This document shows, one piece after another, positions 40,141 through 61,954 of a stretch of DNA of 64,000 nt (within the stretch, counting starts at the first letter, position 1; each line of letters opens with the position of its first letter). The position numbers and the translations under genes were made by a program. The notes beneath the pieces were generated by a model. That model was not told where the DNA came from and searched no databases. It saw only the letters and a list, made by a program, of their open reading frames with translations. The stretch is from Giardia intestinalis (Eukaryota): assembly GCA_000002435.2 (NCBI GenBank), contig CM018792.1. One strand, written 5' to 3'.

Positions 40141-40141
40141 A

Positions 40142-40224: not shown

Positions 40225-40312
40225 GCGCTCGCGCGTGGAGCCGGGAGGCAGGCGTGTCCGTATGCCTAACCAATTTGAATTCATTTCCGGGTCTGAAAAG
40301 ACAAGGCCCGCG

Positions 40313-41452: not shown

Positions 41453-41503
41453 GCCGACCGTGTGCCAAGTGAACCAGGCGCTCCTCCGTTTACTTTGCAA
41501 TGT

Positions 41504-42976: not shown

Positions 42977-45508
42977 ATGAGCACTGCCGACGTTTATGGG
43001 TTGGCCTTCGGGTCTATACTTTTAATTAGCGTATCCATATCGTGCGGTGCTCTTGTCATTTTTGGTGGATTGAGGCATGCATTCCCGGAGATTTTTCAGC
43101 CACAGCGGCACAGACAGCACACCCTTAGCAGATTTCCTTGGTTCATCGACGTCTTTATTCGTCCTCTGGAGGAGTTTGCGAGGAGGGGAGATCTAGTGCT
43201 TCTTTATATCCTGCATCAGACTGCAGTTATCATCATGCTCTTCATTCTCTCGTCATTCAGTGTGCTGGTCTTGATTCCCGTATACTGGCGTGGCACCATG
43301 CAGGGGAGCCTGGGCTCCGGGTGGTCATCCATAACTATCTCTCATCTGGAAGGAAATTGCTTGGCGTATCTCTTCCCGTTAGTAGCAACGTTCATCTATA
43401 TGTTTATAATTCTGTTCTATTATACCCAACTCAGAAGCTTCTGCGTGCGCATTCAGCAGAGCCTACCACCTCCACGCTACGTACTTCTTCTTCACCTTCC
43501 CAAAGAGCTTCGCTACATACAACCGCTTCAGACAGCGTGCCAGCTAATGTACGGAGAAACATTGCGCTGGATAATACCCGTAACGCAGCGTTTTCATACT
43601 GCTGTTAGATGCATCAAAAAGCAAGACCGCCTAGTACACCGAGCAAGCGTAAAGCTCTGCGAATGCGAATGGTACAGTTGCGCCTTGCAAAAGGAAATGC
43701 AGATGATGACAACGCGCGGGCCGCTGCTTAACAAGCTACTTAATATGAAGCGGATACGAGCCGCTAAAAGATTTGGACGGAGCAAATATTCCTTTAGCCA
43801 GCTTCTCCATAAGTTGGATGGAGCGCAAGAAGAGCTGGACCTCATACTTTTGGGGCAGCCAATTAGCTCCGCGCAATATCAACTGCGCATGGAGCAGATA
43901 GAGTACCCTGACTTTTCTGACTACCAGTGCCTACGTGCACTAGGCAGTGATGCGTGTGAGAGGAATGATTGGCATGAGCACCCTTCAGAGGATTCTACCA
44001 ATTTAACTCAGTGGTTCCGAGGGCTTAAGGTCATGTCTGCAGTGCTTGAATTTCAAGATCCAGCTGCTGCGCACAAGGCGGCACAGATGTCTTTCTCTTC
44101 TAACGCATTTAAGCCTAGGGTCCTCGCTGTCTCTCCTCAGCATGTTGTGTGGAGTAACCTTCAAGTACCCGAAACGCTTCGTGCAGCCTTTCAGGTCCTA
44201 TATGTTCTGCTAGTGTTAATATACCTAACCATATACTTCTTTCCGTCCACAACTCTCGTCAATCTTGTTAACAAACATTCAGCCACATGGTTTCAACAGA
44301 TTTACGGAGGCATGTGCTCACCCCAAAGAAACAGGTGCAAGGCCCAGCCATCCATCAGTGGCGAGACAAGGAGCTCGATTGGCAGCACGACTTGCTATGC
44401 GTGTTACAAAATTACAAGCTACATGATAGTCTTTTTGCCGACGGTGATAACGACTAGCCTCAATTCGTTGCTTCCTGTAGTAATTGGTAGCCTTGCACAG
44501 CTCTGCAGGCCAATGTTTATAACCTCATTACGGATAGTTGAATACCAGACGATATTTTTGTTTCTCATCATCATTCAAGGAGCTCTTCAGATTGTGCTAC
44601 CGTCACTGCTGTCCAATGCTGGCGTTCTCGACTACTCCATCCTCTTGACTTATTCTCTTAATCAGATCCTCAGCCAGATTGGACGCAACATGCCCAATCA
44701 AGTGTTTTCTTTTCTTACATACGTGTGTACTAAGTACTTTGTATTCAGCATACTTTCTCTTTTCCGGCCAGTGGACATTTTGACAACGATATTTAACAAA
44801 ATTGTATATCAGCGCTCGTATTGGCCCATCCGTTCTTATAGGGCAGCCGCACGCTTTAACCTAGCAAAGCTCTGCGCATATAGCTCACACATGTTATGCA
44901 TAGGCTTTCTTTTTGGCATAATAGCTCCGATATCTCTTCCAGTGGTAACTATGGCATACACACTGATGGCAGCAGTTGATAGGCACAATATTCTGTATGT
45001 ACATCCAGTCGATGATGAAAGCTGGTTATCACCAGCTCCAAACATTCTCTTTTTCCTCCAAAACACTATCTTTGTCGGGTTCACCTTCATGCTTGTTGCA
45101 ACTGGTGCATACTATCTCCTTCTGACGGGATGGGTGCGAATAGTATGCTTCTCAGCTAATGTGCTCTTCCTCGCTATCTCGATATTTGTCAAAAAGACCC
45201 ACGACAGGAAGTACAAGCCAAATCCCAGGTATACGGGAGCGTGGAAGGAGACTGGAGTGGATAGAAAGAGCATATTTCAGGTTGATGAGAGCGTTTGGAA
45301 AGTGGACAGCTACCGCGGAAGATTGGAGTGGGGTAGAGTGGACAAGTTTAATGCGATAGGGGAAGAACGGCGTAGATTGGATATAGCAACCAGCGCTAAT
45401 GAAGTAGGGACACTGAGAGTTGGCGAGCACTCACTCAGTACCTTTGAGCGACTAGCTTGTTACACCAGAGTGCACACCATGGCAAGGGAGAGTGCTGACA
45501 ATCAGTGA
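42977..45508 (+). CDS. multi-pass membrane protein of the OSCA/TMEM63/CSC1 (DUF221) channel family
   Basis: Topology runs N-terminal TM, then TM cluster, then a ~250 aa cytosolic insert, then a C-terminal 7-8 TM block. The hallmark motif VSPQHVVWSNLQVPETLRAAFQ is of the AP.P.DV.W.NL.IP type and precedes the C-terminal TM block. Confidence 0.55.
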   Translation: MSTADVYGLAFGSILLISVSISCGALVIFGGLRHAFPEIFQPQRHRQHTLSRFPWFIDVFIRPLEEFARRGDLVLLYILHQTAVIIMLFILSSFSVLVLIPVYWRGTMQGSLGSGWSSITISHLEGNCLAYLFPLVATFIYMFIILFYYTQLRSFCVRIQQSLPPPRYVLLLHLPKELRYIQPLQTACQLMYGETLRWIIPVTQRFHTAVRCIKKQDRLVHRASVKLCECEWYSCALQKEMQMMTTRGPLLNKLLNMKRIRAAKRFGRSKYSFSQLLHKLDGAQEELDLILLGQPISSAQYQLRMEQIEYPDFSDYQCLRALGSDACERNDWHEHPSEDSTNLTQWFRGLKVMSAVLEFQDPAAAHKAAQMSFSSNAFKPRVLAVSPQHVVWSNLQVPETLRAAFQVLYVLLVLIYLTIYFFPSTTLVNLVNKHSATWFQQIYGGMCSPQRNRCKAQPSISGETRSSIGSTTCYACYKITSYMIVFLPTVITTSLNSLLPVVIGSLAQLCRPMFITSLRIVEYQTIFLFLIIIQGALQIVLPSLLSNAGVLDYSILLTYSLNQILSQIGRNMPNQVFSFLTYVCTKYFVFSILSLFRPVDILTTIFNKIVYQRSYWPIRSYRAAARFNLAKLCAYSSHMLCIGFLFGIIAPISLPVVTMAYTLMAAVDRHNILYVHPVDDESWLSPAPNILFFLQNTIFVGFTFMLVATGAYYLLLTGWVRIVCFSANVLFLAISIFVKKTHDRKYKPNPRYTGAWKETGVDRKSIFQVDESVWKVDSYRGRLEWGRVDKFNAIGEERRRLDIATSANEVGTLRVGEHSLSTFERLACYTRVHTMARESADNQ

Positions 45509-46038
45509 ATGAAATCGGTAATAGACAATCCAAACTGATTCATGGTTGCAGATCCCAGTGAGGCGCATTGGGAAGAAGGATTGCGAGATTTTTTGGTGAG
45601 GATGGAGCTTAATTTGTTAGCAGGTCTGCTAGCCCCACTGGAGGCGGCGAATAAAGCTGCTGCGCCGTTTGCGAGATTGCATACTGACTTCTCCTTTTCT
45701 TGAACTAACCGCACAGACCTACCGCAGGCTGTGCAGTGAAGTAAAGCGTAATCTGGTCTAGGATGTTTGTGTGTAATTCTGCGTCCTAGGGAAATCCTAG
45801 TGGAGACTCGCGGCCCAGGAGAGACTATCTCTATACTGTCTAAGTCAATGCTATGGCCACAAAGCGTGCATACCAGTGGAAGGGTGGAATCAACGTTTCC
45901 ACCTACAGCATTCTCTGCAGCACGCATTAGCTCTGCTGAATAGGTGGTTGACGTCTTTAGAACATGCAGCGATAGCGTGGCAAGATGCTGGGCCTTCGCT
46001 TCTTCAAGGGCAGGGTTTGATAAGTCTTCTTCGGTCAT
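45502..46038 (-). CDS. zinc-ribbon protein (CxxC...CxxC), possibly RNase P/MRP subunit Rpr2/Rpp21-like
   Basis: CTLCGH ... (27 aa) ... CTACGR paired CxxC. N-terminal helical segment. ATG at 46036-46038 behind an AT-rich leader. The track start is a GTG. It overlaps the OSCA stop by 7 nt, in convergent orientation. Confidence 0.4.
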   Translation of the reverse strand: MTEEDLSNPALEEAKAQHLATLSLHVLKTSTTYSAELMRAAENAVGGNVDSTLPLVCTLCGHSIDLDSIEIVSPGPRVSTRISLGRRITHKHPRPDYALLHCTACGRSVRLVQEKEKSVCNLANGAAALFAASSGASRPANKLSSILTKKSRNPSSQCASLGSATMNQFGLSITDFIH

Positions 46039-46445
46039 AACTAACTTGCAAAAACAAGTTTTTGACTGCTGTACCACGAATATAAAGTCCGATCAGTATT
46101 CACTGAAGACAATCCTGCTATGCTTGACATTCTGCACTTCCTGCAGAGTAAGGTGCAGACTCCTTTTAAACTCTACAAATTGGTTAGATTGCCGTTAAAG
46201 TTGGCGTGGGTATATGCAATAAGAAGACTCCGCTGCTAGCCTGCCACTTCATAAGCGTGTCTGTCCACCGTGTACCTGCACGGCACAGTGGTCACTACCT
46301 ACAAGCTTTTCAGAAATAGCTGATAGCAAGCTCCTCCTAGATCGAGACAGCTTTGCTTTCGAGGGCAGCTGCGTTCAGAGCCTACGCATGGCATCTTTAT
46401 TCCTGATAGAACCTGCCGCAAACTAACCATTTAAATAATTACTAG

Positions 46446-47723
46446 ATGAACGCGCCAAAAAAGACCCGAAAGCCGTCTATCACCAAAGCTGAAAGCACTC
46501 CTCCTTCTCTCCCTCAGCAGGGGCTTCTTTATACAAACTATCCAGATCTAGGAAAGAATACAAAGGTATACTACTCGACACAGCTAGTGGAATCTCCCGA
46601 ACGTCATAGTTTAGTAGAGCTGAACAAACGGCGAGCAGCTAAGGAATCTCACGCGCTCACTTTGCGGAAGCGGTCTATGACTCACTTGTTTGGAATAACC
46701 GCATCTAGAAGGAACACCCTCCAGGCCTTTGATGAGGTCAATTCCTACACACATTTGAAGCAGATCAACCAGGCCCAGGCAATACGGCTGTCCTTAGCGG
46801 GCAAAAATCGAACAGCCGATAGCGAATATGCGGCCTTGTCGGCAGTCTCACAAACGAGGCTGCTGTATACGCATCCCAAGGCAGAGGCTATTCTCGGCAT
46901 GTCGCAGGTGGAACATGAGCGCTATAATGCACTTCGAGCAGGTGCAGCAATCCCACAAGGGGCACATGGAGAAACTGTTACCGGAGCCACTCTCATGACT
47001 GAGCTGCCACCCGAGACATGGGGAGGCACAGAAGATGTCAGTGGTGAGGCTGATTGTAAGCAGGATCTTCTTAGCGAGCAAGAGCAGCAGCTTCTTAGCA
47101 CTAGGGCAACGGTCTGCGATACTGATGTGACAATGAATGCAGAACTGAGCGTCAAAGAAGCTTATTCTGATTACCTTACTATCGAGGACCTTGCCTTTAG
47201 TCATGCTGGGAATGAGGCTAGGAAAAGGCCCAGAGCCGAACAATTGGCTAACCTGGAGAGGCAACGGCTGATAGCAAAGATAGAGTCTGCGTGTATCCCA
47301 CCAAATGTCAAAATAACATCATCCATAGGAGTCCGTGAGATGGCACTTAAGCCTATACAATCCATACCCTCTACGCTTGTCACATCAAGTCAGGTTCTAG
47401 ACCGGTCAACCCGATCGTTGAAAAACGTTCAGTCAACAACGGCATATGTTAACAAGCTGGTAAGGTCTTGTACAGAGACAACCTACCTGCCTGCGTCAGG
47501 GGGTAGGGAGGACAGGATTCGGCATTCTATCCCATCTTCCCATAGGTTTGTTACGACAGAGGCCTCGACAATGAAAGACCTCATTCACTTTATTCCAGAT
47601 AATTCTCAAGACATGCGAAAACGGAGCAGAGAATCGATTATAGAGCTTTCAGGATCGGGAGGTCCTCGTGTTGCAGATGTGCTTGATGTTCTAGTTTGGT
47701 CTAGGAGATCAACTGCCACATAG
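46446..47723 (+). CDS. hypothetical protein (425 aa)
   Basis: ATG at 46446 directly behind CCATTTAAATAATTACTAG, a strong AT initiator. No domain recognised. Confidence 0.45.
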   Translation: MNAPKKTRKPSITKAESTPPSLPQQGLLYTNYPDLGKNTKVYYSTQLVESPERHSLVELNKRRAAKESHALTLRKRSMTHLFGITASRRNTLQAFDEVNSYTHLKQINQAQAIRLSLAGKNRTADSEYAALSAVSQTRLLYTHPKAEAILGMSQVEHERYNALRAGAAIPQGAHGETVTGATLMTELPPETWGGTEDVSGEADCKQDLLSEQEQQLLSTRATVCDTDVTMNAELSVKEAYSDYLTIEDLAFSHAGNEARKRPRAEQLANLERQRLIAKIESACIPPNVKITSSIGVREMALKPIQSIPSTLVTSSQVLDRSTRSLKNVQSTTAYVNKLVRSCTETTYLPASGGREDRIRHSIPSSHRFVTTEASTMKDLIHFIPDNSQDMRKRSRESIIELSGSGGPRVADVLDVLVWSRRSTAT

Positions 47724-47765
47724 ATCCGTGGACCAATTAGCTAAGTAGCTAGAGAATATCGATAT

Positions 47766-48959
47766 TCACTCACCGGGGGGAAGAAGCATGGTCCTTAGGC
47801 GTGAGTCCTGCACTTCTTGTATCTGTGCACGCTTATCCTCCAGCTCAGAATCACTAAGGCTCATATCGCTTGGCTCTTCATTCAGTCCGTCACTCTCTCT
47901 ATACGCAATGCGCCTTATAAAATGATCCCAACTGGCAAACACGACCATATCCAACTCCTTGTCTCCAGACGCTTGTGTTACCACCTGTGGAACCAGGTTG
48001 ACTGCACATATTCCGTCGAAGAACCGTCTAGATGACCTTGCTTCCTGTAGTTTGCCATGGCAAGTCAAAAAGACCAATCTTTTGCTTCGTAAGCCGATAA
48101 CTATGTGCCCAGTCTTCGAAACAATCTCTTCGTCGCTTGGAAATGCCCAGTCCAAGGCCCAATCCTCTAGCTCGATGCTATACAAATGTGTTTCTTGCTG
48201 ATTCTTCAAGGACCCAGCTAGTTCTGTCTTTTCGCCTGTTTCAGAGTAAAGCTTCTCTAAGAACATGGCCAGTGGAAGCTCAACGCCTCGGATGTGCTTG
48301 TCTGCGCAGGCTGTCCACAGGATTTCTCCTGCAAACTTCACTAGCAGTACGTTGGTAGGATGCGGTTGGAGGCGGTAGATGACTTCCATTGTGTTTCCAT
48401 CAATCACAACAGTTGCGCCATCAGAGCAGGCAGCTGCAAGAAGGATGTGACCATCTCCTGATAGAGGAAGAAGACACAGAGAGTTGACAGCCCTCTGAGA
48501 GATAGATATTGTCGCTGACGTGATATACGGACTTTCCTGAATGGGTGTATTAGGCTCGAATGCCTGCTTATTCCTAGAGATGTCCCACCTGGAGACATAA
48601 CCGTCGGCAGATCCGCTGAAGATATAGTGCTCGTCGTGTGAAAAGATCATGCATTTGACAAAGTCGTTGTGTGAGGTCAATCCGGGACCAGGAGCAAAGA
48701 TCGCGTTGTCAACGATGGTTCTGTCCACTATGGAAAAGCACAGGATCCGTTTGTCCCAGCTTCCCGTGTACATGTGCCGTTTATTTTGCGAAAGAAGAAT
48801 GCAGACTACAGGCCCGGTATGGCCCTCGTAAGAGCGTACCAGTCTGCCTGTTTTCCAGTTAAAGCAGCGCACCTGATGTGTTGCCAGACCGATAAATGTA
48901 TATGGGCCATTAGTGACCGCCGAAACGATCTTGCTCTTGCAGTCTATTTGGTGAAGCAT
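47766..48959 (-). CDS. WD40-repeat protein (397 aa)
   Basis: GHTGPVVCI, TGSWDKRILCF and SGSADGYVSRWD are WD repeat signatures. ATG at 48957-48959. It shares an AT-rich spacer (GGATTTTAAAACTTCTTTAAATAAGAG) with the divergent 49034 gene. Confidence 0.7.
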   Translation of the reverse strand: MLHQIDCKSKIVSAVTNGPYTFIGLATHQVRCFNWKTGRLVRSYEGHTGPVVCILLSQNKRHMYTGSWDKRILCFSIVDRTIVDNAIFAPGPGLTSHNDFVKCMIFSHDEHYIFSGSADGYVSRWDISRNKQAFEPNTPIQESPYITSATISISQRAVNSLCLLPLSGDGHILLAAACSDGATVVIDGNTMEVIYRLQPHPTNVLLVKFAGEILWTACADKHIRGVELPLAMFLEKLYSETGEKTELAGSLKNQQETHLYSIELEDWALDWAFPSDEEIVSKTGHIVIGLRSKRLVFLTCHGKLQEARSSRRFFDGICAVNLVPQVVTQASGDKELDMVVFASWDHFIRRIAYRESDGLNEEPSDMSLSDSELEDKRAQIQEVQDSRLRTMLLPPGE

Positions 48960-49033
48960 GGATCCAGCGCTAGGTGGGACGGATTTTAAAACTTCTTTAA
49001 ATAAGAGACTCTTTTAGACCATCTCAAGAGGAG

Positions 49034-50524
49034 ATGCATACGGGGCCTATTAGTGCCAATGCAGCAACCCGCAATAGCCATAGAAGGCTGCTCATACCGC
49101 TTCCTTCTAACTCTTTTTTACCTCCGCTGCTCTCTCAAAATTGTCTCCAAGCTTTTGTTGCTATGCGCCACGTCAATATAACACCTATTTATAGCGTTTC
49201 TCCCTGCAGTGATAAGGTGCTTCAGGTTTGTACTGAGCCGTGCGTTTCATGCACACTACGTCACGTAATCGACGAGCTTTCGTTTTTGGAGAGTGAATGT
49301 GGCATTAGGCTGGCAGCATCCATTTTTGTCGGGGCCTTGGAAGCATTGGCTTATTTAGCTTGTCTCAGTAGAGTGTGGGGACTAGAGTTAGACATTCAGA
49401 ATATAAATTGGCTGGATATGTTATGCGTAGATGACAGAGGGCAGTGGAAAATAATTGCCCATAAGATGAGTTCTTATCGGGGTGGTCACAAGCCATGCAA
49501 TAGCATATCAGGCACACATACGCCTTCTAATAACTTTCGTACTTGTGATGAAATAGCCCACATGTGTTTACCCGGTATGCAGTCACTGGGACTTATTATA
49601 TTGAATTTACTAGTTGCTGGGTCTCGCATTGACCTAGAGGAAAGTATAACGCTACGAAGTTGGAATAAACTTCAAACGGATATTGCATGCTCCCGAAACA
49701 AACACGAGATTCCTGACCTAAGGCTTTTCATTGATACGCTCAGTATCATATGGGACGAAAACTTCAACCAGCCTGTACATCCATATCACATACTCACGCG
49801 CCTTCTGCCCATTCTTCAGACATACATGAAAGACGAATCTACTAAAAGCGGAGCAGTGGACCCTGAACACAGAAGAAAATCAAAATACTCTCCGCTTATG
49901 CTCGGTGTCTTATCCAAAGACTATGAGCTCGTGCAAAGACACATTTCGTATGCAGGTTGTAGAACAGCATCAGGAATGACAGCCCTTATGATGGCGGCAA
50001 GAGACAATTTTGTAGAAGCCGTACAGATTCTACTTCCCCATGAAGCACACTATAAAACGTTTTTAGGGACTAGATTTGAGAGTAGAACAGCACTGATGTT
50101 CGCAACCCACAACCGCAACTACGACTCCATGCATATACTCTATGAGCAAGAAGCTGGAATCGCTAATGTCTATGGGGCCACATCCTTAATGCGTGCAGCT
50201 CAAAATGGAGATTGTGTAGCAGTTGAGATACTCATGAAGCGCGAAGCAGGAATGGCTAACTACACAGGGTTTACGGCACTGATGAATGGAGCCACAAAAG
50301 GCTTCACCAAAATTGTAAGTTTGCTGCTCCCATTTGAAGCAGGAGGAGTTACAAATGATAAGCACGAATGGGGAAAGGGCCATTCTGCCCTTTCGCTGGC
50401 GGCAATGAATGCTAACAAAGAGGTAGTTTTGTTGTTATATGAAGTTGAGCGACAGTTACTTAAGTCTCGGTGCATATTAACATCCGGAAAAACAGTGATA
50501 GAGGAGCTTATTGAAGGAAAGTAG
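49034..50524 (+). CDS. ankyrin-repeat protein, Giardia Protein 21.1 type (496 aa)
   Basis: At least five tandem ANK repeats in the C-terminal half: G(M/A/F)TALM.AA..N....V..LL. The ~280 aa N-terminal domain lacks kinase catalytic motifs. Confidence 0.75.
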   Translation: MHTGPISANAATRNSHRRLLIPLPSNSFLPPLLSQNCLQAFVAMRHVNITPIYSVSPCSDKVLQVCTEPCVSCTLRHVIDELSFLESECGIRLAASIFVGALEALAYLACLSRVWGLELDIQNINWLDMLCVDDRGQWKIIAHKMSSYRGGHKPCNSISGTHTPSNNFRTCDEIAHMCLPGMQSLGLIILNLLVAGSRIDLEESITLRSWNKLQTDIACSRNKHEIPDLRLFIDTLSIIWDENFNQPVHPYHILTRLLPILQTYMKDESTKSGAVDPEHRRKSKYSPLMLGVLSKDYELVQRHISYAGCRTASGMTALMMAARDNFVEAVQILLPHEAHYKTFLGTRFESRTALMFATHNRNYDSMHILYEQEAGIANVYGATSLMRAAQNGDCVAVEILMKREAGMANYTGFTALMNGATKGFTKIVSLLLPFEAGGVTNDKHEWGKGHSALSLAAMNANKEVVLLLYEVERQLLKSRCILTSGKTVIEELIEGK

Positions 50525-53500
50525 TATAGTTATCTAGTTATGCCAGTTGATTACATGTGTCATACATAACGTGGTAGCCAATAGCTTAATATAATGCTAT
50601 CAATACATATGGTTATCATATTAAGACGCAGGACCTAAATGCTACAGGCGGCCTCAGAAAAAGCTCTCTGAGGGAACAAGAAGTGAGGCGACTAATGCAC
50701 CGAGGATGCTGCAGGCCTCTGTCCACGGAATGCAAACCCATTACTATGCAATTCGCTACCACAGGCTTCTGTTTGCGGTGACACAACTGCTGGGTGTCGC
50801 CACGCTCTGGAAGCTAGTGTACGGGCTCACGTTGTAAGGCCGGCGGACCGGAGGATGCAGGGGCCACAGGGTAGCGACTGACCATCATGGTTCTATAGGC
50901 TCTGCGGCTAGTAGCACAGGGGCAGGGATGCTGCATCCCGGTGATTGGCTCAGGGCCGCACTATCCAATGGGCCGACGACCCTCATGTTGTTTCAATCTG
51001 ACGTGGCCTCCACTGCTGCTCCCGTACGAGTTGGAGAAGGGGCTGGCCCCATCGAATGCGGCAGAGAACAACAGGCGCCCGGCCTTCGGGCGAGGAAGCT
51101 GGGTGATCTCGTCCAGGCGAAGCCGACTCCTCACCGTCCTCTGGGTCCTGCCTCTTCTACCGCCCTGGCACAACATAGCTCGGTAGGGGGCGGCGTGTCT
51201 GCGCTACAGGACGCGTCGTCAAGAAAGAGTGGGCCTGGAGAGACCCGACGGCCACCGCTGGGATAGGCCTCAGAAGCCCTTGGCTGCAGGATACGCTACT
51301 GCCAGGGTCAGTGCAGGCTATGGCTTTGAGGAAGCGCAGGACTGATGGGTGCTATCAGGAAACACCTGGCACGTTCTCGTGTAGAGGGGGACTCAGGCTT
51401 GCGGGCTCGGATGTCTGCCATTTCCGTGTCAAGTTGATGTGACCAGATCAGGGGCAGTGGTCGAGGGATCGATCCACAGGCTCCAGAACAATATGTCGAA
51501 GAACAAGCAATCAGACTGGCGGTGGCTTCGGCAGTGTCGTGGCCCGGGCCTCTTCAGCCGCGCTTGATGGAACCCGACGTTGCGCCAGGCGACGGGACAG
51601 GGCACCGGTCGTCCTTAGAGCATGCAGGAGGCGAGGCTTGTGAGCCCATGGGCGTCTGGCCTGCCAGCTGAGGCCACATCGGTGACGAGGCCCAGGGTGA
51701 TGCAGCGTGGATGACCCTGTGCGCGTGTGCTCTGTGATGACGGGCCTGACGGTGAGTGCAGCAAGGTTATAGGCACGGGCTCTGTCTGGGCCAGGGCCCC
51801 AGAGCTCTTTCTGTCGCAGGGAAGAATAGGGCAGCGCGGTGCAAGGAAGGCATCTAGCAGGATGCTGGGAAACTGACCCGATGTGGCAAATCACGGGCGC
51901 TGCCAAACACGGCGTCTCTTCTCTTAGACAGAAGACAGGCAGAGTGGATGATTGCGGAGGCTGCAGTGTCCGTGGTAGATCGCGGCATCGCAAGGTGGCT
52001 GAGTCTGTGCCGGTGTGTCTGTCCGGGCTCTAAGTGCGCTCTGAGGATCACCTGCTGATGGGCTGGAAGGCCCGAGAAGTGATGCGCTGCCCTTGTCATC
52101 GCGGGCAGCGCCCTGTGGCACGCACTCGAGCCAGCGCCTCCTGGTGGCCAGAAGCAGAGCAGAGGCAGACGGCCGGTCGTGCATCCGTCCAGGCGGCTCA
52201 CTGCGTGTAGAGCGAAGAAGACCACCTGCGCCGCTCGGGTTATTGCTCAGCATCAAGTGCGGATGGAAGGCTGGGCCCGGCAACCAGGGCGCCGACCTGC
52301 ACGCTCCCGTCAGCCATCCCAGGCCGGTCAGAAGCCAGGCTCGACAGGCAGTGCAAATGCCAGGGAAGCCAGCGTGACCATCGGGCCCGCGTTTGAATGC
52401 TAAAAAACTTGGGCAGCGATGGCGACTGTCGTCTTCCTGGGAGGGCGCCTCTTCGCACAGGGTCAGCCGTCCTGGCCCTGCATACTGGGTGCGCGGCTCG
52501 AAGGCGCGCTGTGCTAGTTGTGGACCTGTCAGGCGCTGCAGCCTACGAATAGCACGGACGGATGCAACGGAGTGTCCGCGCAGTGCACTGTCATTGTCCC
52601 AGAGAGCTGTTGTTCTAACCATGCGCCCTACACCGGCTCGGCATACCCCTGCTGCTTCCGCTGCTGGTCTGTCTGCCACTTGTTTATTATAGCGGGGGGC
52701 GCATACGCTTATAGTGTCGTCTAGGCACTGTAGTGGTCTTCTCGGACGGTGCATGTATATTCACATGATGGCCGATGGGTGGAGCGGCTGCCTGATCTTA
52801 GAGCTCTCATTGCAACAAGGCGGGGCGTCGGCTGTCTACACGCCTCTAAGCGAGCCCGCGACCTCTGTGCAGATGCCTGCTCGCCGCGCTCCATAGTGAC
52901 GGCTGTACACCCAGAAGGGGTCGCAGAATCCTCCGCTGTCCTTCGAGGTGGACCACGGCTTGTGCACAGGCTAGCGACGGGGCCTGCGCACCAGTTGCTA
53001 TGGGTCCAGTCTGCCGGGCACCTGGATTACAGTGCACGTCAAGACTGCACACTCGTTTGCATGCTCGCTGCTCGTGTTGGACAGAACTGCGAGGGGTCTG
53101 TCTCTGGCCATCCTCGCCTTAGTGCTTGGCCCTTGATGACACGCCTCAGCAGAGGATGGTGTCTTCTAAGTACTCGGAAGACTATCCGTGCCTGGCGGTT
53201 CCTAGAGAGTCGGTTCGCACAGAAAGCGTAGATGTGCCCGGCGGGCTGGCGGGGTAGGGCTGGGGCTACAGAGACTAGCCATTAGCCCGGATTACAGCAG
53301 GGACACCTGTAGTGCCTCCTCGGCTCCTAAGCGTGGAAAGGCCGTAGAACTTGCAGATGAGTTGGAGGCTGGTTTTTGATTTTATGCATTTGCAGCAGAG
53401 CAGAGTTTACTGAAGGTCCACTTATTCTAAATTCGAGGAGCCTCATCTCCTCCTCACACACGGTGAGATGATCGATTGTAGAGGTGTATTGTGCAAACCG

Positions 53501-55204
53501 GTGGCAGTCAGCGTATATCCAGACGGATACTGCCTGCGTCCTCTTGTGGCAGACCACCACCAGGGCTCCAATCTGCACATCTGTTCTGGCATCTGTCGGG
53601 CAATCATCACCTTTGGTCGAATGATTGCTGTACGTCACACAGCTTGAGCCATCCGTCGACCAGGTGGTGCCATAAGCTCTTGTCCCCTACTTGTCCACCC
53701 GATGCAGACTCTGAGCGCCGCCAGTTGCACTCACGTCTGCACTACTCATCTGGATGCCCCCACTCTTCAAGAGCACATGCCCGCAGCCGATGCTCCGTAT
53801 TACAAGAGGAGCCAGCCGGGCCACTGCGCTGTGCATAGCTCTCCTGGGCGTATTGTTATGCGCGCCCAGCCTTTCCATCTATAAGTCACCACGCAGCTCT
53901 TTCCCACCGTCTCGCGTCCACATGTGCGCCAGCGCCGCCGAGCTTTCGTGGTCTCGAGGGGCCCCTGATGCATGGAGCGCTTGCGCAAAGTCCTTCCACC
54001 ACTGACCCAAGCCGACCCCTCGCAAGATCCTTAGCGGAGTTGCGTCCGAGATGTGTGCCTGCGTTGCTGTCCAGGTGCATGTGCCGGCCCTGGTGCTTCC
54101 CACAAGCTTGCGAGCATCGAGCTGGCCGCTACCGAACCGTATCAGAAGTCAGCACCAGGATGTAGTCCCATCAGTCAGGCTCTGCAGGCTCCCAGAGCTA
54201 CGCATCAAAAGGCCGTTCTTCTTTGGTTGTGCAGCGTGGGGAGATGCACCGAACTACCACACCCTCTCCGTGTGGCGTGGTTTACGACGGGGGACGGGGT
54301 CCCTGTGCTCATGTCTATCTGCCCAGGACGAGTCGCAGCCCGGGTTGACAATGACAAGCGAGCATCGCCCGGCTCCTTGTCAGCGGGTGGGAGATCCCGC
54401 CACCCTAGTACCCACAGCAACGGGTGCCGATCACTGGCAGAGGGACACGACACCCAGGCTCCCGTTCCTTCCACTGATGGTAGCCCACTATGAAGAGCCC
54501 TTTGTCGCCTGCACCAACAACCTCAGGCACTGTGGGTCAGAGCGCCTCCATAGTGGACAGCGGTAGCACTATGATGATCTGGGGTGACAGGAGTCCCGGT
54601 CTATCAACTCAGGAGACAGCACGCTTTGGGCAATGCTTCCCTCCTGTCCAGATCTGGGAGGACTGGCTGCCTTCTGAGCCCACCTGGCACCTTGTCAGGT
54701 GATGGAGTGTCTTAAAGTATTCATTACAAAAGATCAGAAATAGCGCCATGCATTCCCAATAGACCAGAACGTCTCCTAGGCTACTCTATGCTGATTCGCA
54801 CCTTTCATGGACCCTAGCGATCACTGTAATCTTCTCTCGGGATCCCGCAAGGGACTGTCCTTGAGTGCGATTCCCCCACGACAGCCGGGAGTCGCAGACA
54901 TAATCCAAAGGGATGAGAGTACTACAGAGGCTGAGAGGAGAGCGCCGATGCACAGGGGTCCGCAGAGACCCGGTTCGTACAGGGAAGGCGTGGAGGCTGG
55001 CTCTCCAGGGATGTAGAGCCACCAGGAAAGGAGCTGGCAGTGGGGCTTAGGCGCAGCAGAGGCACCCGATCCGTCCTCTGATTGGCCGCGAGGCAGTAGG
55101 CGCATGGGGCGGCATCACCGCTTGTTTTTGGATTTTCTGCTTCCCTGCGCGTTGTGCAGGGGTCCGCAGTGGGCTGAGTATCACAGGCTACACATAGTAG
55201 ATGC
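50525..55204. other. 4.7-kb ORF-poor, moderately GC-rich block without recognisable coding potential
   Basis: The longest ORF is 276 aa with random-looking composition. Both strands are littered with stops. No rRNA 5-prime signature and no TAGGG telomere repeats were found. Confidence 0.5.
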
Positions 55205-55219
55205 GTTTACTACCTAAGT
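55205..55219 (-). promoter_or_regulatory. VSP extended polyadenylation element ACTTAGGTAGTAAAC
   Basis: It lies on the coding strand 2 nt after the VSP TAG stop. It matches the conserved VSP 3-prime element ACTYAGRTAGTRAAY exactly. Confidence 0.8.
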
Positions 55220-55221
55220 AC

Positions 55222-57465
55222 CTACGCCTTCCCTCTGCAGATGAACCACCAGCAGAGGAAGCCGACGAGGCCGGCCACAATGACAACCGCCGCGACAGAG
55301 ATCCCTGCTATGGCACCGGTAGAAAGGCCGCTCTTATTCGTGCTTCCCCCGGTACTTTCACCGTTCATGAGGTAGCAGAGAACGGAGCCACTACCAGCCG
55401 ATGGAGGGGCGCAGCTAGCGCAGTTGGCGACGCCGGTGATGGATCCCCCGTCGCTCTTGTCGCATGCTATACACTTTTCTTTGGACGGGTAGTACCCTGC
55501 AGCGCACACCGTGCACTTGGTGGCGTCGTTCGCATTGCACTCGGAGCACTCAGTGGCGCAGGGAACACACTTCTTAGTGTTACCGCCAGTCTTAGCATAT
55601 CCAGCCTTACACGTGTCGCACTGGTCCTGGCTGGTGCACGTCTTACATCCGGCCGAGCAAGTGATGAGCGCGCCGTTATTCAGCTTGTACCCGTCGGCCG
55701 GAGTCTGACAGGCATCGCTCGCTTCTGCTGCGGCTAAGCAGACGCTCTTTCCGGGGAACTTGGTCGTCTCATAGCAGCCCCCGTTCATACGAAGAAGCCC
55801 GTTGGCGCATTTGTCACAGACACCAGTCCCTTTGGTAGTGCACGTAATAGCCTTTCCGGCCGCCGCCGAGCAGACTCCGTTCTGTGGAAACTGGCCGGCT
55901 TCCTTGCACTTGGAGCAGTAGGCCGTGCCATCGACCGTCAGCTCGCACTTCTCGCAGTTGTTAGCATTTGGCTCGCATCCTGGTTTGCACGTCCCCGTGT
56001 TGCCCTCTCCTTCGTAGCTGAGGGCCTTCTTAGGCTCACAGCTCGTACACCCGTTGGAGTTCCCGTTCGCGCACGTCTTGCACGAGGTATCGCACTTGGC
56101 ACAGGCGGTTTCTTTCTTGTAGTATCCGTCCTTGCAGGTCTCGCACTGTCCTTGCCCGTTGCACAGGAGGCAGTTCTCGACCTCGCACTTCTTGCAGGCC
56201 TTCTTGCCCCCCTCGTTGGTGCCCGCGTAGTAGCCTCCCAGATCTCCGCACGCATCGATGCACTGGCCCGTGGGCGTGAGGGCCTTAGTGCCCTCGCACT
56301 CTGTGCACACCTCCTTGCTTGTCTTCGGCTCACTGCACGTCTTGCAGCCGGGGGTGTTGCACGGCGCCGCAGGGGGGTCGGACTTCTTCATGCACCCGGT
56401 GCCGGCCTCCTCGGGAACGTAGCCCTCAACGCACTCACAAACGCCAGAGGTCTTTTCCTCGTTGGAGTTCAAGGGGCAGCTTTCAACGCACCCCTTCTTG
56501 TTTGGCTGGACCTTCTTCTGGTTTTCGCACGTCTTGCAGGCGACTGCTCCATCGGCGCCCTTCTCGCACGTCGCGCATCCATTGGAGGTCCCCTCGGCGC
56601 ACGCCTTGCACGTCTTCGGCTCAGTGTCGTCGGCGTAGTGGGTGCTTTGATTCTTGCACTCAGTTTCGGTGACGCACGTGCCAGTGTCGCTGCCATTATC
56701 CTTCTTCAGGTACGGCTTGTCGTCCTTACAGGAGGTGCACTTCGCAGCCTCGGTCTTACAGGTCTTGCAACCAGGATCACACGCCTCACAGGTTTTGGTG
56801 CCGCCATTTTTCACGAAGAACCCTTCGGTGCCGGTGCACTCTTCTTCTGTCACGCAGGAGGTGGCTGAATCTGTAGCCGTCTTCAGATACTTACCTTCTT
56901 GGCACGCAGTGCATGTGGCAGCCTTAGTGCCACTAGCTGATAGTTGCTCTGGTTTCTCACAGGTAGCGCACCCAGCCACCCCCGTGTATATCTTATCGCC
57001 AGTAAGTGTTACGCCCGTCGCGTCTCCGCACGAAACAACAGAGTCGTGGGCGTCGTCTGTATCTGCCGGCGGGACAAAGTACTTATTTCCAGCGACAGCC
57101 TCTGTGCACTTACCAGCATCTGCCGCTTGACACATGGCATTGCCAGGGGGTTTTGCTCGTTCATAGCACCCGCCCTTGTACATGAAGGAGTTGCCGTTAC
57201 ATCCTGTACATTTTCCGCCTGCGTGTGTCTTACATACTGCTGTATCAGACGACACATCTGTGCATACCCCGTTGACAGGAGCGCGATCAGCGGGATCTGC
57301 CTTGCATTGAGAGCAATACAATTTACCATCAATCAGAACGTTGCATGCCTCATCGGCACAATTGGTAGTTTGATCTGCACAGGTAGCCGTTCCAGCTTTT
57401 TCTGCTATCTGTGCCGTCCATACAAACTGAAGGATTACCCCCGCGAGAACAAATCTACAGAACAT
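55222..57465 (-). CDS. vsp: variant-specific surface protein (VSP), complete, 747 aa
   Basis: Signal peptide MFCRFVLAGVILQFVWTA. About 11% Cys with many CxxC motifs, and a GGCY motif. C-terminal TM plus invariant CRGKA tail, followed by the VSP poly(A) element. Confidence 0.93.
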   Translation of the reverse strand: MFCRFVLAGVILQFVWTAQIAEKAGTATCADQTTNCADEACNVLIDGKLYCSQCKADPADRAPVNGVCTDVSSDTAVCKTHAGGKCTGCNGNSFMYKGGCYERAKPPGNAMCQAADAGKCTEAVAGNKYFVPPADTDDAHDSVVSCGDATGVTLTGDKIYTGVAGCATCEKPEQLSASGTKAATCTACQEGKYLKTATDSATSCVTEEECTGTEGFFVKNGGTKTCEACDPGCKTCKTEAAKCTSCKDDKPYLKKDNGSDTGTCVTETECKNQSTHYADDTEPKTCKACAEGTSNGCATCEKGADGAVACKTCENQKKVQPNKKGCVESCPLNSNEEKTSGVCECVEGYVPEEAGTGCMKKSDPPAAPCNTPGCKTCSEPKTSKEVCTECEGTKALTPTGQCIDACGDLGGYYAGTNEGGKKACKKCEVENCLLCNGQGQCETCKDGYYKKETACAKCDTSCKTCANGNSNGCTSCEPKKALSYEGEGNTGTCKPGCEPNANNCEKCELTVDGTAYCSKCKEAGQFPQNGVCSAAAGKAITCTTKGTGVCDKCANGLLRMNGGCYETTKFPGKSVCLAAAEASDACQTPADGYKLNNGALITCSAGCKTCTSQDQCDTCKAGYAKTGGNTKKCVPCATECSECNANDATKCTVCAAGYYPSKEKCIACDKSDGGSITGVANCASCAPPSAGSGSVLCYLMNGESTGGSTNKSGLSTGAIAGISVAAVVIVAGLVGFLCWWFICRGKA

Positions 57466-59240
57466 TGGGGTCAGCCGGTTACTAGGAGACGGACAGAACT
57501 ATTAATACATTATTATCAATCTGTGTGATACACAGTAGAGTGTAATACTGGGCACACTTCTGAACGACGTCACGTGAGTGATGAGAACGCCATCCTGTCA
57601 TTCGCGGAGGGCCTCTCATTCTCCCTCGTTATAGACCGTGGCAACAGAGACACAACAGGCAGCTCGTCCGTCTCCGTAAGCATTCCAGGGAGTCCTGCCT
57701 GTCTGTACGAGGAGGTTTACTCTTCCACCAAGGACGGTTTCCGGCTGCTTCCGGTACATCAGTCGTGCCTGGACCGCTAGTCTGTTGACCGCTCGGGATT
57801 TCAGATATGAAGGCTTGGATGTGTCCAGGTTCTGGTGGCGGTGATGGAGTATTCCACGTGGGTTTTTGCAGGGGCGGGTCTTTCTGAAGCATACCGCAGG
57901 CAGATCTGCGATACACTGACCCACTACCATTGACGGGTGCTCTTGCGCTAGTCTTGTATCTGGTTCGCTGATGATCCCCCCTAGACGACATCTTCCGCCA
58001 TCTCTCGGAGAAGCGCGGTCTCAGACCAACCTCCAGTGGAACAACTCATCAGTTCCGCCTGTGTGGCGGGCTTCAGGCTTACCTGCAGGCGTAATCCAGA
58101 AATTTCACGAGTGGGTCTCGTCATTCCTGGCCAGTTCAGAGACGAGGGTTGGTCGTTAATGATATAATAGGGATCTCCCTTCACTTGTATACCAGGAGTC
58201 TTTTGCGTCTCTCAGTCGCTCCGCAGGGGTGTGCTCAGGCTGAGTATGCACGCCGGTCCTTTCGGGGTTCAGGCCTTCTCGTGGACTCTCTGCTCTATCA
58301 GTGGCGCCTCTCCTTGGTCTGCCGCCTTGGTGGGTGTAACTCTGGTCACTGTCCTTTTTTAGATGCTCCCGTCTGTCAGGGGCCGTCATCGGGCTCTCCG
58401 CTGGCTGGGCCTCTCAGTGTCCGGGCAGCTGTGGCTCGAGTCAGGGCTCCCACGGTCGCGGTCACTTGGGTCTCAGTGGGTCAGCTGGTGGGTGAGGCGG
58501 GGTTGGTGGGTGAGGCTGGAGGGCTCTGGTGGGGGCTGAGGCGGGGGGTGTTGTATGTGCCTCTGGATCCGGTGGGCCAGTGGGGTGGTGGGTGATCCCC
58601 TCTCTGTTTGCCAAGGTGGTTGCGTCTGATCCCCAGCCTTCGTTGCACTCCTGAGACAGAGGCACCGACGATCGTGTCGTGTCCCCTGACTGAGCGCCTC
58701 CCTTGGCCCCTGCATGTCTCGGGCAGTACTGCTTCTCTGTTTGACTAGTACGTGAGTGTTGAGGCAGGCCATCGCAGCCTCTCCTGTTGCTCGCTGGTGC
58801 TCTGTGCGGGTCTGCTGAGCCCCTGGCATGCCCTGTCCAGTGCCTCGACGGTAGTTCACCTCGGGCCAGCAGGGGTGTGGATGAGCCTGTGGATGGGATG
58901 GGGTGCTCTCAGGCCTCTAGTGTGATGGCCCTCGAAGACTGGCATGGTGGGGACCGGGTGGGCGGTGTTGTATGTGTCCCTGGTCCGGTGGGCCATGTCG
59001 GGTGATCGCAGCTGTGGTGACTGGAGGCTGTCTATCTGTGACCCATCCCTCTGTGGACTCGGGAGTGCCCTCCGCCCAGGCAACAGTGGTGCTGCTGGGG
59101 CCCTCGCCTGCGGGCGCTGTCCAAAATCTCGCGAGTAAATTCCCGCTCAATTTTTGGCGATGTCCGGAGACGAGGGTTGGTCACGGGCCGTAACGATAAT
59201 CACAGCGGTTGTAAGGAGGAGCTATCTGCGTTCCTCGGCT
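57195..59240. repeat. left arm of perfect inverted duplication (mirror coordinate = 121195 - x); contains VSP 5-prime 270 bp + 1.77 kb upstream
   Basis: Every ORF of 60 aa or more in this arm has a letter-identical twin on the opposite strand of 61955-64000. Examples are 58149..58595(+) with 62600..63046(-), and 58972..59193(+) with 62002..62223(-). Direct base check: 57466-57640 equals the reverse complement of 63555-63729. Identity ends at 59240/61955. The outer limit is set by the window end. Confidence 0.9.
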
Positions 59241-59930
59241 GTTCCGTGGGCGTGCGCACAGCTGGACCTGAAGCGTCGAAGAGCCCGCGAGGACCCGATC
59301 CGCATTATGAATGCAAGATCGTACCTCCGGGGCCCCCAGAGAGCAATCGTGAGTCTCTACTCGGGGGACCACTCCGAAGACGTTTACTCTCTCAGCAGGA
59401 CACACGTGCTGGCTCTGTGGCCAACCGTGTGAGAGCGCCAAGCAACTAACCGAGCACCTGAGAGAAGCAAACGATGACAGACACAGAGTGCTGGGCGACG
59501 ACAAGTTGATCATTCCGGCCCAGTACCGAACCGGACAGCTGCCATGCTCATCCACCAAGGTGCACGCATGATCGCGAGCATCGAGCAGGCTGGGACTGGG
59601 GTCGCGCTCCCCGCTATCAAGGGCCTGAACGCCCTGGTGGGAAGCCCCAGAAGACTCAAGCAACACAGTAGAGCAGGCCCAGAGTAAGGCAGACCCAGAC
59701 CCCGAGAAGGCGAGACGCCGGATAGCAAACAGGGTGAACAACGCGCTGAGCTTCGGGGCAGTTGCTAAGGCTCTCCGCGCCCTTGATGAGACACCCATGG
59801 TAGACATCAAGTCGGAGAAGGCCGACCGCCCTCAGCGCGCTACACCTGTGCGTCCTCCCGAAGGCTACGTTGGCCTTGACTACCCTCCATCGATGAACTC
59901 GACGGGCTGGAGCCGGCAACCGAGGAGGAA

Positions 59931-60676
59931 ATGAGGAAGGCCCTGTTGGGACTCTCAACAAGAAGGCCTCGGGCCGGTCCAGCTCAAGGCGATGAAGCAG
60001 AGCGACAGCTTCGTGAAGTACCTCACGCAGGCATACAACGAGCTGACCACCCACCCCGAGGCGATGCCAGAGGTGATGGCCATGCTCGAGTTCCGGGCGA
60101 TCCTCATCCCGAAGGAGTCCGACGGATACCGCCCGATCGCGATAGGCGAGACGGTGACAAACATCTTCCACCGCGTCCTGCTGAAGGGCTGATCAGGCAT
60201 GCCAACTACCTCTTGTGCGAACAGATCGCCTTCATGCAGAACGCATACGCGGTAGGTGTGAGGAGGGCCCACGAGCTCATCAGCAGGCGGGGATGCACGC
60301 CGTCTCCCTCGACATAACGAACGCCCTCAACTCGCTCCCGAGGGCAGAGGTCGCCAGAGCCCTGAACGAGGCGGGCGTCCCGAAGGTCATGGTCGACCAC
60401 ATCGGGGACTTCCTCGACCTGAGGCACAGCCGGGACGTGAAGTGCGAGGTCTGCGGCGTCCCCCAGGGCGACCCGCTCAGCATGCTCCTCTTCTGCATGG
60501 CCATCGAGCGCCTCCTGAGACGCCTCAAGGAGAGAGGCATCCCCTTCCTTGCCTATGCGGACGACATCGTGGCGTTCCACGACGAGGCCTACCCGGCAGG
60601 TGTGATAACACAGCTGGCCATGGGCCTGACGATCAGGAGCGACAATGCAAGTCCACCATGGCGGGCGAGGAGGTGA
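59931..60676 (+). pseudogene. reverse transcriptase domain remnant (frameshifted)
   Basis: RT motifs 0, 1, 2, 3, A, B-prime/C (YADD) are spread over three reading frames (ORFs 59931.., 59992..60192, 60215..60676). Confidence 0.8.
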
Positions 60677-61689: not shown

Positions 61690-61954
61690 ATCCATCCCCG
61701 GGACCCGACGACAACGACCGAGAAGGGGCAAAGACTGGACACACAGCCGAGTTGAATCCCAACCAGAAGAGAAAGCCCGCTAGCTGCTGCTGATCTGTAT
61801 GGACAGTATTGAGAATGACAACAAAGACCAGAGCTTCACTCACCGTGAAGGGAGAACAAGGAGAGGCGCTCTAACAGGCCAGCGAACCTGCAGGACGGCT
61901 TGATCTCTGAAAGAACCGATGTGCACATCCAGTCTGAGTGTACTCCTGTAGAAT

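Follow-up and report, generated by a model that had tools for sequence, protein, structure and literature searches.

The gene-less stretch between Ankyrin-repeat protein 1 (KAE8304497; below, ARP-1) and the head-to-head VSP pair d112801/112801 on chromosome 4 of Giardia intestinalis WB is probably the long GC-rich non-coding 3' flank of that VSP pair. It is not a gene, nor can a mobile element be recognised in it, and it would thus be an example of the gene-poor and GC-elevated surroundings of VSPs. Being collinear in sub-assemblage AII and at an unchanged place in assemblage E, the block is an old, stable and drifting spacer, not the product of a recent rearrangement. All positions below refer to the window, the stretch of 64,000 nucleotides of WB chromosome 4 that was analysed (Table 1).

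Table 1. Features of the block and of its surroundings in the window
Feature	Position	Strand	Remarks
ARP-1	49034-50524	+	Exact protein-collection match; Pfam Ank_2, E 1.4e-24
ARP-1 3' flank	50525-50616		AT-rich, unique, outside the repeated block; homology with L008 and L004 begins at 50617
Desert proper	50617-55204	none	GC-rich (59.6%) non-coding block, VSP 3' flank
Part also beside GL50803_135269/135270	50617-52710		Contigs L008, L023, L024 and L004
ORF112 (GL50803_95472)	50928-51266	+	Hypothetical protein of the old annotation; judged spurious
Part in a third context	51519-54303		L005/L006; meets an unrelated AT-rich flank at the counterpart of 51519
ORF276	51924-52754	-	Longest ORF; judged a chance ORF
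AT-rich island GTTTGAATGCTAAAAAACTTGG	52391-52412	+	Full 22-mer exact in WB and P15
Second AT-rich island TTTTTGATTTTATGCATTTG	53373-53392	none	Identical in WB, L005, L006 and P15
Extended VSP polyadenylation signal ACTTAGGTAGTAAAC	55205-55219	-	Right edge of the block; read from the sequence
VSP, 747 aa (KAE8304498/99)	55222-57465	-	Pair d112801/112801; exact protein-collection match
Palindrome	57195-64000		Context, outside the block; arms 57195-59261 and 61934-64000, 100% complementary; centre 2672 nt
RT relic	60215-60676		In the palindrome centre; Pfam RVT_1, E 1.8e-15

Results

Location and boundaries

The 2020 reference annotation runs from KAE8304496 (WD-repeat) through ARP-1 directly to the two VSPs, with nothing in between, and the older annotation places a single ORF, GL50803_95472, in the block. 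ARP-1 shares 98.0% of its nucleotides with DH and 84.7% with P15, at a pN/pS of 0.25. From the stop codon of ARP-1 to that of the VSP the distance is 4,697 nt. On its right side the block directly adjoins the VSP gene, its limit being the minus-strand poly(A) signal of the VSP (AGTAAAC, 55205-55211); the segment around this signal (55191-55326) is 81% identical with P15. Table 2 of Xu et al. 2020 (PMC7000408) gives the d112801/112801 pair as 747 aa, arranged <- ->, 6264 bp apart and with a pseudo-RT between the genes. The mirror distance that we computed from the palindrome is also 6264 bp, equal to the published value.

The largest intergenic gap within 1-50524 is 407 bp, and the gap of 4.68 kb is therefore more than ten times as long as any other in the window. 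GC content is 0.53-0.65 along the block vs 0.43-0.47 in the gene to the left, and the desert proper as a whole (0.596) stands against 42.7% at the 4-fold (neutral) sites of the flanking genes.

Absence of coding and RNA signals

The block is non-coding and has no RNA-structure signal. As the original prediction had stated, the longest ORF between 50524 and 55205 has 276 aa, and the ORFs are rich in Arg, Pro and Ala (R 10.5%, A 11.2% and P 9.4% in the block vs 5.2%, 7.7% and 4.9% in core genes), with Leu and Ser enriched as well. The coding density above 85% claimed for the preceding 50 kb is confirmed by ATG-initiated ORFs covering 95% of 1-50524. The longest stop-free run in the block comprises 278 codons, and each frame holds 36-55 stops, the level of random sequence of 60% GC. 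A run of at least 278 codons has P = 0.034 in a first-order Markov simulation; therefore, the ORF length is only marginally unusual. Period-3 power is 0.68 in the block and 0.73 in random sequence, vs 3.97 in core genes, 15 in the VSP and 2.7-5.5 in the neighbouring RT relic. Pfam finds no match in the six frames of the block, and phmmer and tblastn find none with VSP and RT relics. Rfam, run over the whole window with gathering and E-value thresholds, returns no rRNA, and in the block no family at all. RNA-fold z-scores over 114 windows in the block have a mean of 0.02 and a minimum of -2.33, and the 12-nt motif for 3' processing of Giardia ncRNAs, as described in PMC3510501, does not occur in it.

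The predicted desert lacking a conserved gene or an expressed-ncRNA-type structure thus stands by the null results of the six-frame Pfam, Rfam and RNA-fold scans, which also bear out the remark that no rRNA signature is present. The rDNA-spacer origin that was suggested along with it is not supported, as Rfam finds no rRNA match in the window. A subtelomeric identity is not supported either: the block is free of TAGGG telomeric repeats, as had been noted, the RT is present only as a fragmentary relic, and for the VSP pair only chromosome 4 is given as location. The sole (TAGGG)2-like site in the window, at 24144 and outside the block, has one mismatch and is due to chance.

Conservation of position and rate of divergence

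Contigs of AII (L019-L021) are collinear with window positions 39045-53336. In P15 (assemblage E), ARP-1 is followed by a gene-less block of 5.8 kb with a GC content of 59-69% and then by a VSP tail, with order and orientation as in WB. This arrangement shows that the block must have lain between ARP-1 and the VSP tail since before the split of assemblages A and E.

Between WB and AII, the block is 93.6% identical over 2720 nt, vs 97.0% at the 4-fold sites of neighbouring genes, which amounts to differences of 6.4% and 3.0%, respectively; the comparison within the A lineage reaches 54303, and 54.3-55.2 kb is represented by ORF variants only. Between WB and P15, identity in the block is ~65% (46-76% per 100-nt bin) with many indels, and the reference values are 70.5% at 4-fold sites and 86.9% in coding sequence. 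In these alignments the block diverges at the neutral rate or slightly faster and gains indels. Polarised changes in the block number 24 S>W vs 18 W>S and show no strong drift towards AT, 42 changes being too few to separate mechanisms.

The original prediction had placed a junction between core genome and a variable, rearrangement-prone compartment here. The junction holds insofar as the block is a seam between a dense syntenic core segment and a VSP/retroelement neighbourhood, at which short-read assemblies break. The proneness to rearrangement holds for the exchange of sequence with paralogous copies, but not for the block itself, which is constantly present, collinear in AII and at the same position in assemblage E.

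Copies elsewhere and gene conversion

The block is a low-copy repeat, of which WB has at least two to three copies, and at least two other loci carry parts of it. One paralogue begins exactly at 50617 beside the duplicated 172-aa gene GL50803_135269/135270, which was duplicated along with the block together with its spacer. Position 50617 is a sharp homology edge, beyond which the flank differs in L008, L004 and L023-L026. The extent to 52710 is a minimum because contigs end there, and L004 continues to 53267. Contig L008, whose flank places it with the WB type, is 98.3% identical with the window over 50617-51569 and 100% identical with the WB-type flank contigs L009-L013; L023 and L024 show 92.7-95.4% as far as 52710. 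The copy in the third context is 94.7% identical in 51543-52640, 96-100% per 150-nt bin over 52700-54050 and 91-95% from there to 54303. WB-type contigs from both flanks stop at one shared homologous base (50691), 30 nt past the last difference between the paralogues (50661), and the contigs L022 and L026 of one sample both terminate at 50890.

Paralogues are 98.0% identical within WB (window vs L008) and also 98.0% within the DH-like lineage (L021 vs L004, from two different samples), and the one pair from a single sample (L020 vs L024) is at 96.6%, vs 92.7-96.2% for orthologous copies between lineages. The tract 50745-50830 is identical inside each lineage pair and different between the pairs, and identity along the block forms a mosaic of 87-100% per 150 nt. 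Substitutions specific to a lineage are common to its paralogues, a sign of gene conversion. From the order of accessions and a remark in a preprint (bioRxiv 10.1101/2022.03.07.483299), our guess is that a further VSP pair lies beside the 135269/135270 copies.

Alternative explanations

The block might be a highly decayed mobile element, as the original prediction had offered, for example the long untranslated region from a non-LTR retrotransposon of the GilD/Genie type, with variably 5'-truncated copies. Copies with two different left ends (50617 and 51519) are seen in three or more sequence contexts, which fits 5' truncation if the right ends coincide, but one segmental duplication also yields a boundary common to two copies, and the 172-aa gene and its spacer were copied together with the block. 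There is a dead RT relic at a distance of 4 kb, and the preprint reports transposon relics around duplicated VSPs (bioRxiv 10.1101/2022.03.07.483299). However, RT, endonuclease and other domains are absent from the six frames in both WB and P15. Searching the block by tblastn with Giardia RT relics gave only E values above 0.5, where the neighbouring RT relic, as positive control, was found at E ~1e-109. The block also lacks the codon periodicity that this relic retains and has no nucleotide similarity to it. At 50617 and near 55204 we found neither terminal nor inverted repeats, no poly(A) or A-run and no direct repeat of the target-site type. With domains, terminal repeats, poly(A) and similarity to the adjacent relic all missing, the proposal is not upheld, and we regard this explanation as unlikely.

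Function without coding is distinctly unlikely, though it has the conserved position and length from assemblage A to E in its favour. The block could serve as a boundary between core and VSP, or as a source of ncRNA, e.g. from the plus-strand island 52391-52412 antisense into the VSP. The elements that serve as Giardia promoters are short and AT-rich, and the silencing of VSPs has been linked to antisense VSP RNA; these two points count for this explanation, as do the two AT-rich islands, invariant from WB to P15 against a background of ~65% identity, which could be functional. The 14-nt core GAATGCTAAAAAAC of island 52391-52412 does not vary among the copies covering it, and the island resembles a Giardia initiator. 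However, the ATG downstream of this island is unconserved, being lost in DH and L004, and exact runs of at least 16 nt number five vs ~3 expected (an estimate at ~68% identity), so the excess of runs of 16-22 nt is only marginal. Divergence at or above the neutral rate, plentiful indels and the absent Rfam and RNA-structure signals also speak against function.

Drift alone leaves unexplained why 4.6-5.8 kb of seemingly useless DNA persists where the mean intergenic length is below 0.5 kb. A bolder reading, to which we give little probability, is that the block is a maintained module for both recombination and regulation. A small family of GC-rich flanks would supply homology for VSP duplication, inversion and palindromes, and the AT-rich, initiator-like islands would launch antisense ncRNAs feeding VSP silencing.

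A decayed array of pseudogenes, of VSPs or other cysteine-rich genes, is very improbable. The GC content of the block is VSP-like, and Xu et al. 2020 (PMC7000408) mention 208 annotated pseudo-VSPs in WB, often in arrays. Against this, CXXC occurs 0.16 times per 100 aa in six-frame fragments of the block vs 3.75 in the VSP, E values from a phmmer search with the latter are 0.6 or worse, and BLASTN finds no similarity between the block and the adjacent VSP. The missing Pfam matches and period-3 signal add to these.

The longest ORF, ORF276, has a pN/pS of 0.87-1.16 and is broken in most copies by a 1-nt indel and seven in-frame stops (L019, L023, L004 and L007); in L021 it is free of indels and contains two in-frame stops. 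It has no Pfam match, and among 5.8 billion proteins only two near-identical clusters correspond to it. ORF112, as a candidate for a hidden gene, is intact in five A-lineage copies with a pN/pS of 0.33-0.57, but its antisense frame scores equally low, and its variable sites by codon position are 8/17/21, so that position 2 is about as variable as position 3, which counts against coding. Period-3 power across its region is 0.2-1.1, tblastn against P15 finds no homologue, with the P15 alignment there filled with gaps, and the KAE (2020) series gives it no accession and has no protein-coding annotation between ARP-1 and the VSP. A hidden protein-coding gene, whether GL50803_95472 or one containing introns, is hardly credible on these grounds.

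Discussion

Our preferred explanation, a non-coding 3' flank of the VSP pair, accommodates the copies as follows. They would have arisen through segmental duplication of VSP neighbourhoods, and ectopic gene conversion would partly homogenise them. Recombination, acting via GC-biased repair, may hold this unconstrained DNA near 60% GC against 43% at the neighbouring neutral sites. The role of the block would be passive, that of a spacer separating housekeeping genes from the VSP unit, and it may also provide a homology substrate for rearrangements that duplicate and invert VSP genes.

A hole of 4.7 kb in a very compact genome is, on this explanation, the usual non-coding surround of VSPs and of little importance alone. 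Since no hidden gene, RNA or transposon was found, the block should not be annotated as one. The block gives a neutral-rate yardstick for VSP flanks, an example of a flank position kept since before the A/E split, and dispersed copies at ~60% GC that exchange sequence within a lineage. These by-products may be of modest use in studies on the evolution of the VSP repertoire and on the breaks of short-read Giardia assemblies at such places.

This kind of VSP flank has already been described in general terms. Around VSPs, according to Xu et al. (2020, Sci Data, PMC7000408), genes are sparse and the sequence varies more. According to the preprint, intergenic lengths have a median of 1280 nt at VSPs vs 79 nt genome-wide and a mean of 2131 nt vs 392 nt, VSP intergenic GC is higher, hypothetical genes in duplicate are located close to VSP pairs, and some intergenic sequences are common to several VSP loci (bioRxiv 10.1101/2022.03.07.483299). 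The GC averages given in these sources are 46.3% for the genome and 45.2% for genes (PMC7000408 / bioRxiv 10.1101/2022.03.07.483299). Like these regions, the block adjoins a VSP, is over-long, has GC above average and elevated variation, holds only an untenable hypothetical ORF and is partly shared with loci bearing duplicated hypothetical genes. Its 4.7 kb exceed the reported mean of 2.1 kb. The published descriptions are genome-wide statistics; the orthology with assemblage E, the neutral-rate calibration and the gene conversion between paralogues do not appear in the texts available of Xu et al. 2020 and the preprint.

Adam et al. (2010, BMC Genomics, PMC2996952) described inverted VSP pairs with flanks identical for only 139-729 bp, followed by abrupt divergence. 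Here, too, the VSPs form an identical head-to-head pair, and the block borders on one of the two. Unlike there, the block lies outside the WB palindrome within the window, with the left arm beginning at 57195 and the block's mirror image due past the window end, and in P15 a single VSP sits in the loop of a palindrome with block-type arms. The P15 arrangement is a possible example of flank-driven palindrome formation.

The dead non-LTR retrotransposons GilD and Genie 2 are reportedly GC-rich, degenerate, interstitial and vsp-associated. The block shares all four properties, and 4 kb from it, between the two VSPs, is an RT relic of broadly this type. Unlike these elements, the block has no RT trace, codon periodicity or terminal structure, and it does not resemble the neighbouring relic.

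Low-copy repeats and segmental duplications that are homogenised by ectopic gene conversion occur around antigen-gene families of other parasites. Like such repeats, the block has few dispersed copies with abrupt homology edges and mosaic identity, its paralogues within a lineage are closer than orthologues between lineages, and its GC content is high compared with nearby neutral sites.

Coding potential and composition of the block

The stretch between the ankyrin-repeat gene ARP-1 (stop at 50524) and the VSP gene at 55222-57465 (-) had been predicted to hold no reading frame above 276 aa, and the longest ORF from the ARP-1 stop to the VSP poly(A) signal has exactly this length. Coding density above 85% in the preceding 50 kb was likewise borne out, with ORF coverage of 95% over 50.5 kb and no gap longer than 407 bp. 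The 2020 annotation places zero proteins from ARP-1 to the VSP. Over the same interval, the 36-55 stops per frame are at the level of random 60%-GC sequence, and a 278-codon open run is marginal (P = 0.034, Markov simulation). Measured in 900-nt windows, period-3 power never exceeds 1.56 in the block (median 0.68); simulated random sequence has its median at 0.73 and its 95th percentile at 1.67, core genes reach 3.97, the VSP 15, and the dead RT region still 2.7-5.5.

The individual ORFs were judged spurious. For ORF276, the longest, pN/pS is 0.87-1.16. Its frame is disturbed by a 1-nt indel together with seven in-frame stops in L019, L023, L004 and L007; L021, a sub-assemblage AII contig at the ARP-1 locus, has no indel but two in-frame stops. 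ORF112, identical to XP_001705250 ('hypothetical protein GL50803_95472', Giardia lamblia ATCC 50803), was considered as a gene for its pN/pS of 0.33-0.57, but was dropped because the antisense frame scores equally, variable sites are distributed 8/17/21 over codon positions 1/2/3, and tblastn found no counterpart in the assemblage E isolate P15. The P15 homologue of ORF103 contains in-frame stops, so the match merely mirrors ~70% nucleotide identity. ORFs of the right-hand part of the block occur as frame-shifted variants on other contigs.

The GC content of the block (50617-55204) is 59.6% versus 43-47% in the gene to its left. Neutral sites of the flanking genes have 42.7% GC, and the unconstrained block has ~60% in assemblage A and 59-69% in assemblage E. 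Polarised WB/AII changes comprise 24 S>W and 18 W>S, which argues against strong decay towards AT, with counts too small to prove a bias. We infer that GC-biased gene conversion may lie behind this composition.

Features of the locus and of compared contigs (window positions unless a contig is named)
Feature	Position	Strand	Description
ORF112	50928-51266	+	GL50803_95472
ORF276	51924-52754	-	longest ORF of the block
AT-rich island 1	52391-52412		GTTTGAATGCTAAAAAACTTGG; exact in WB and P15 (statistically marginal)
ORF103	53327-53638	-	tblastn to P15, 47% identity
AT-rich island 2	53373-53392		TTTTTGATTTTATGCATTTG; exact in WB and P15 (statistically marginal)
tRNA-Leu (anticodon TAG)	40142-40224	-	83 nt
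Palindrome	arms 57195-59261 and 61934-64000		arms 100% complementary over at least 2067 nt; right arm cut by the window's end
RVT_1 relic	60215-60676		in the 2672-nt palindrome centre; E 1.8e-15
172-aa gene	L004 3233-3751	-	
172-aa gene	L008 3-317	+	
172-aa gene	L009 9386-9904	+	
P15 palindrome	L027 1-3736; arms 1-1028 and 2710-3736		arms 94-100% complementary; loop 1681 nt

Searches for mobile-element and RNA signals

The six-frame Pfam search of the block was empty apart from a sub-threshold YmcF-like match (E 0.17), which was disregarded. Using VSP and Giardia RT relics as queries, phmmer and tblastn gave zero matches in the WB or P15 block, and a decayed VSP or RT was rejected on this basis; as a positive control, the same queries matched the neighbouring RT relic at ~1e-109. 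CXXC motifs number 0.16 per 100 aa in the block and 3.75 in the VSP. When the block was compared with the entire window by BLASTN, neither the RT relic nor the VSP nor the palindrome showed similarity, and the Rfam scan of the block gave a single HCV stem-loop match (E 0.56), taken as chance. Since these Pfam, RT-relic, in-window relic and Rfam searches came back empty, the original prediction of a decayed mobile element or rDNA spacer finds no support. Its placing of the block at a junction of the core genome with the VSP/retroelement neighbourhood is supported. Its statement that the block lacks telomeric TAGGG repeats agrees with our motif scan, which found none. Tandem, direct and inverted repeat searches within the block returned short chance matches only. 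The 12-nt Giardia ncRNA 3' processing motif (from PMC3510501) was not found in the block, and RNA-fold z-scores are flat (mean 0.02, minimum -2.33, 114 windows). The sole Rfam or ARAGORN match in the 64 kb is the tRNA-Leu, which sits in the overlap of ORFs on both strands, beside the ribosomal protein L3 gene.

The 14-nt core of AT-rich island 1 is unchanged in all copies covering it, and island 2 is identical in both other A-lineage contigs reaching it; the statistics of island conservation from WB to P15 are marginal. Island 1 resembles a Giardia initiator, aimed at the VSP and hence antisense to it. The ATG downstream of island 1 is lost in DH and L004.

The block as a low-copy repeat

Comparison of assembled contigs indicates that the block is a low-copy repeat. 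Logan contigs with ARP-1 end at 50691, and separate WB-type contigs with the 172-aa gene GL50803_135269/135270 all end at the homologous base, 780 nt past that gene. A longer contig of the latter kind, L008, runs on and matches 50617-51569 at 98.3% identity. Homology begins abruptly at 50617, and the last paralogue difference, at 50661, lies 30 nt before 50691. An assembly graph with k = 31, presumably the Logan value, would break at 50691. In an AII sample, contigs from both loci (L022, L026) both end at 50890. Contigs from two unique flanks ending at one homologous base are how a two-copy repeat shows up in an assembly, and this explains the fragmentation of short-read Giardia assemblies at VSP flanks. 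At the 172-aa locus, the AII-type copies (L023, L024) run to at least 52710, and the L004 copy reaches 53267. In a third context (L005/L006), the copy abuts an unrelated AT-rich flank at 51519 and continues to 54303 or beyond; the L005 flank has no counterpart among the loci retrieved for comparison.

Contig ends at 50691 or 50890 were seen in L001, L002, L009-L013, L015, L017, L018, L022 and L026. A first metagenome scan, with a 22-mer, gave no match. A second, with an AT-rich 20-mer, matched 66 contigs, none BLASTN-similar to the window, so these matches are chance.

The 172-aa gene is present in WB as two identical copies (KAE8304550 and KAE8304553), and its protein, which has no Pfam domain, is also found in P15. 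Between L008 and L004, 1 of 104 residues differs at 95.2% DNA identity over the whole 1975-nt overlap, suggesting that this is probably a real gene under constraint. Searching the literature for genes 95472, 135269 and 135270 gave nothing but noise.

Over 50617-51410, paralogue identity is 98.0% both in WB (window vs L008) and in DH-like contigs (L021 vs L004, from different samples), and 96.6% in the one single-sample pair, L020 and L024. For orthologous copies from different lineages, identity over this interval is 92.7-96.2%. At 50745-50830, the window equals L008, L021 equals L004 and L019 equals L023, and the pairs differ between lineages. Identity is patchy along the block. We read these patterns as ectopic gene conversion among the copies.

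Age and drift across lineages

The block is old, its position kept in AII and assemblage E. AII contigs (DH, GCA_000498715.1, and two metagenome scaffolds) match the window collinearly from 39045 into the block and end at 53336. In P15 (ACVC01000162, contig L027) the order is as in WB: ARP-1, then 5.8 kb with no annotated genes and a GC content of 59-69%, then a VSP, which is frameshifted, has the CRGKA end and is oriented as in WB.

The alignments also indicate that the block drifts. Over 2720 nt of the block, WB and AII share 93.6% identity, compared with 98.7% across the four flanking genes as a whole and 97.0% at their 4-fold degenerate sites. Between WB and P15, 100-nt bins of the block range from 46 to 76% identity, and gaps are numerous (65-68% in local BLAST); the flanking genes have 70.5% at 4-fold sites and 86.9% over the coding sequence.

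The segment 51410-51543 is replaced or strongly diverged in some copies; in L023 it differs in length and identity is down to 72%, and the P15 alignment has a 312-column gap nearby. This segment appears to be a local indel hotspot inside the block.

Discussion

On chromosome 4, the d112801/112801 pair consists of 747-aa VSPs in divergent orientation (<- ->), separated by 6264 bp that include a pseudo-RT (Xu et al. 2020, PMC7000408, Table 2). Computed via the palindrome, the mirror start codon lies 6264 bp from 57465, which identifies our locus as this pair. The palindrome arms extend 271 nt into the VSP gene from its start and cover 1.8 kb of upstream DNA. The protein-database relatives of the RVT_1 relic are all fragments of at most 267 aa.

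Unlike WB, with its head-to-head VSP pair, P15 has a VSP inside the palindrome loop. The P15 arms consist of GC-rich block-type DNA, and the loop carries the frameshifted VSP (L027 1398-2625). The P15 palindrome could let the VSP gene flip. Inverted VSP pairs, whose flanks diverge abruptly, have been described (Adam et al. 2010, PMC2996952).

Xu et al. 2020 (PMC7000408) describe the surroundings of VSPs as poor in genes and more variable. VSP intergenic regions have a median length of 1280 nt (mean 2131 nt), compared with 79 nt (mean 392 nt) genome-wide, and a higher GC content; their sequences are shared between loci, 'hypothetical' neighbours of VSPs are untranscribed, and duplicated VSPs have duplicated hypothetical genes nearby (bioRxiv 10.1101/2022.03.07.483299). 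The block is a long example of this known class, the gene-poor VSP flank.
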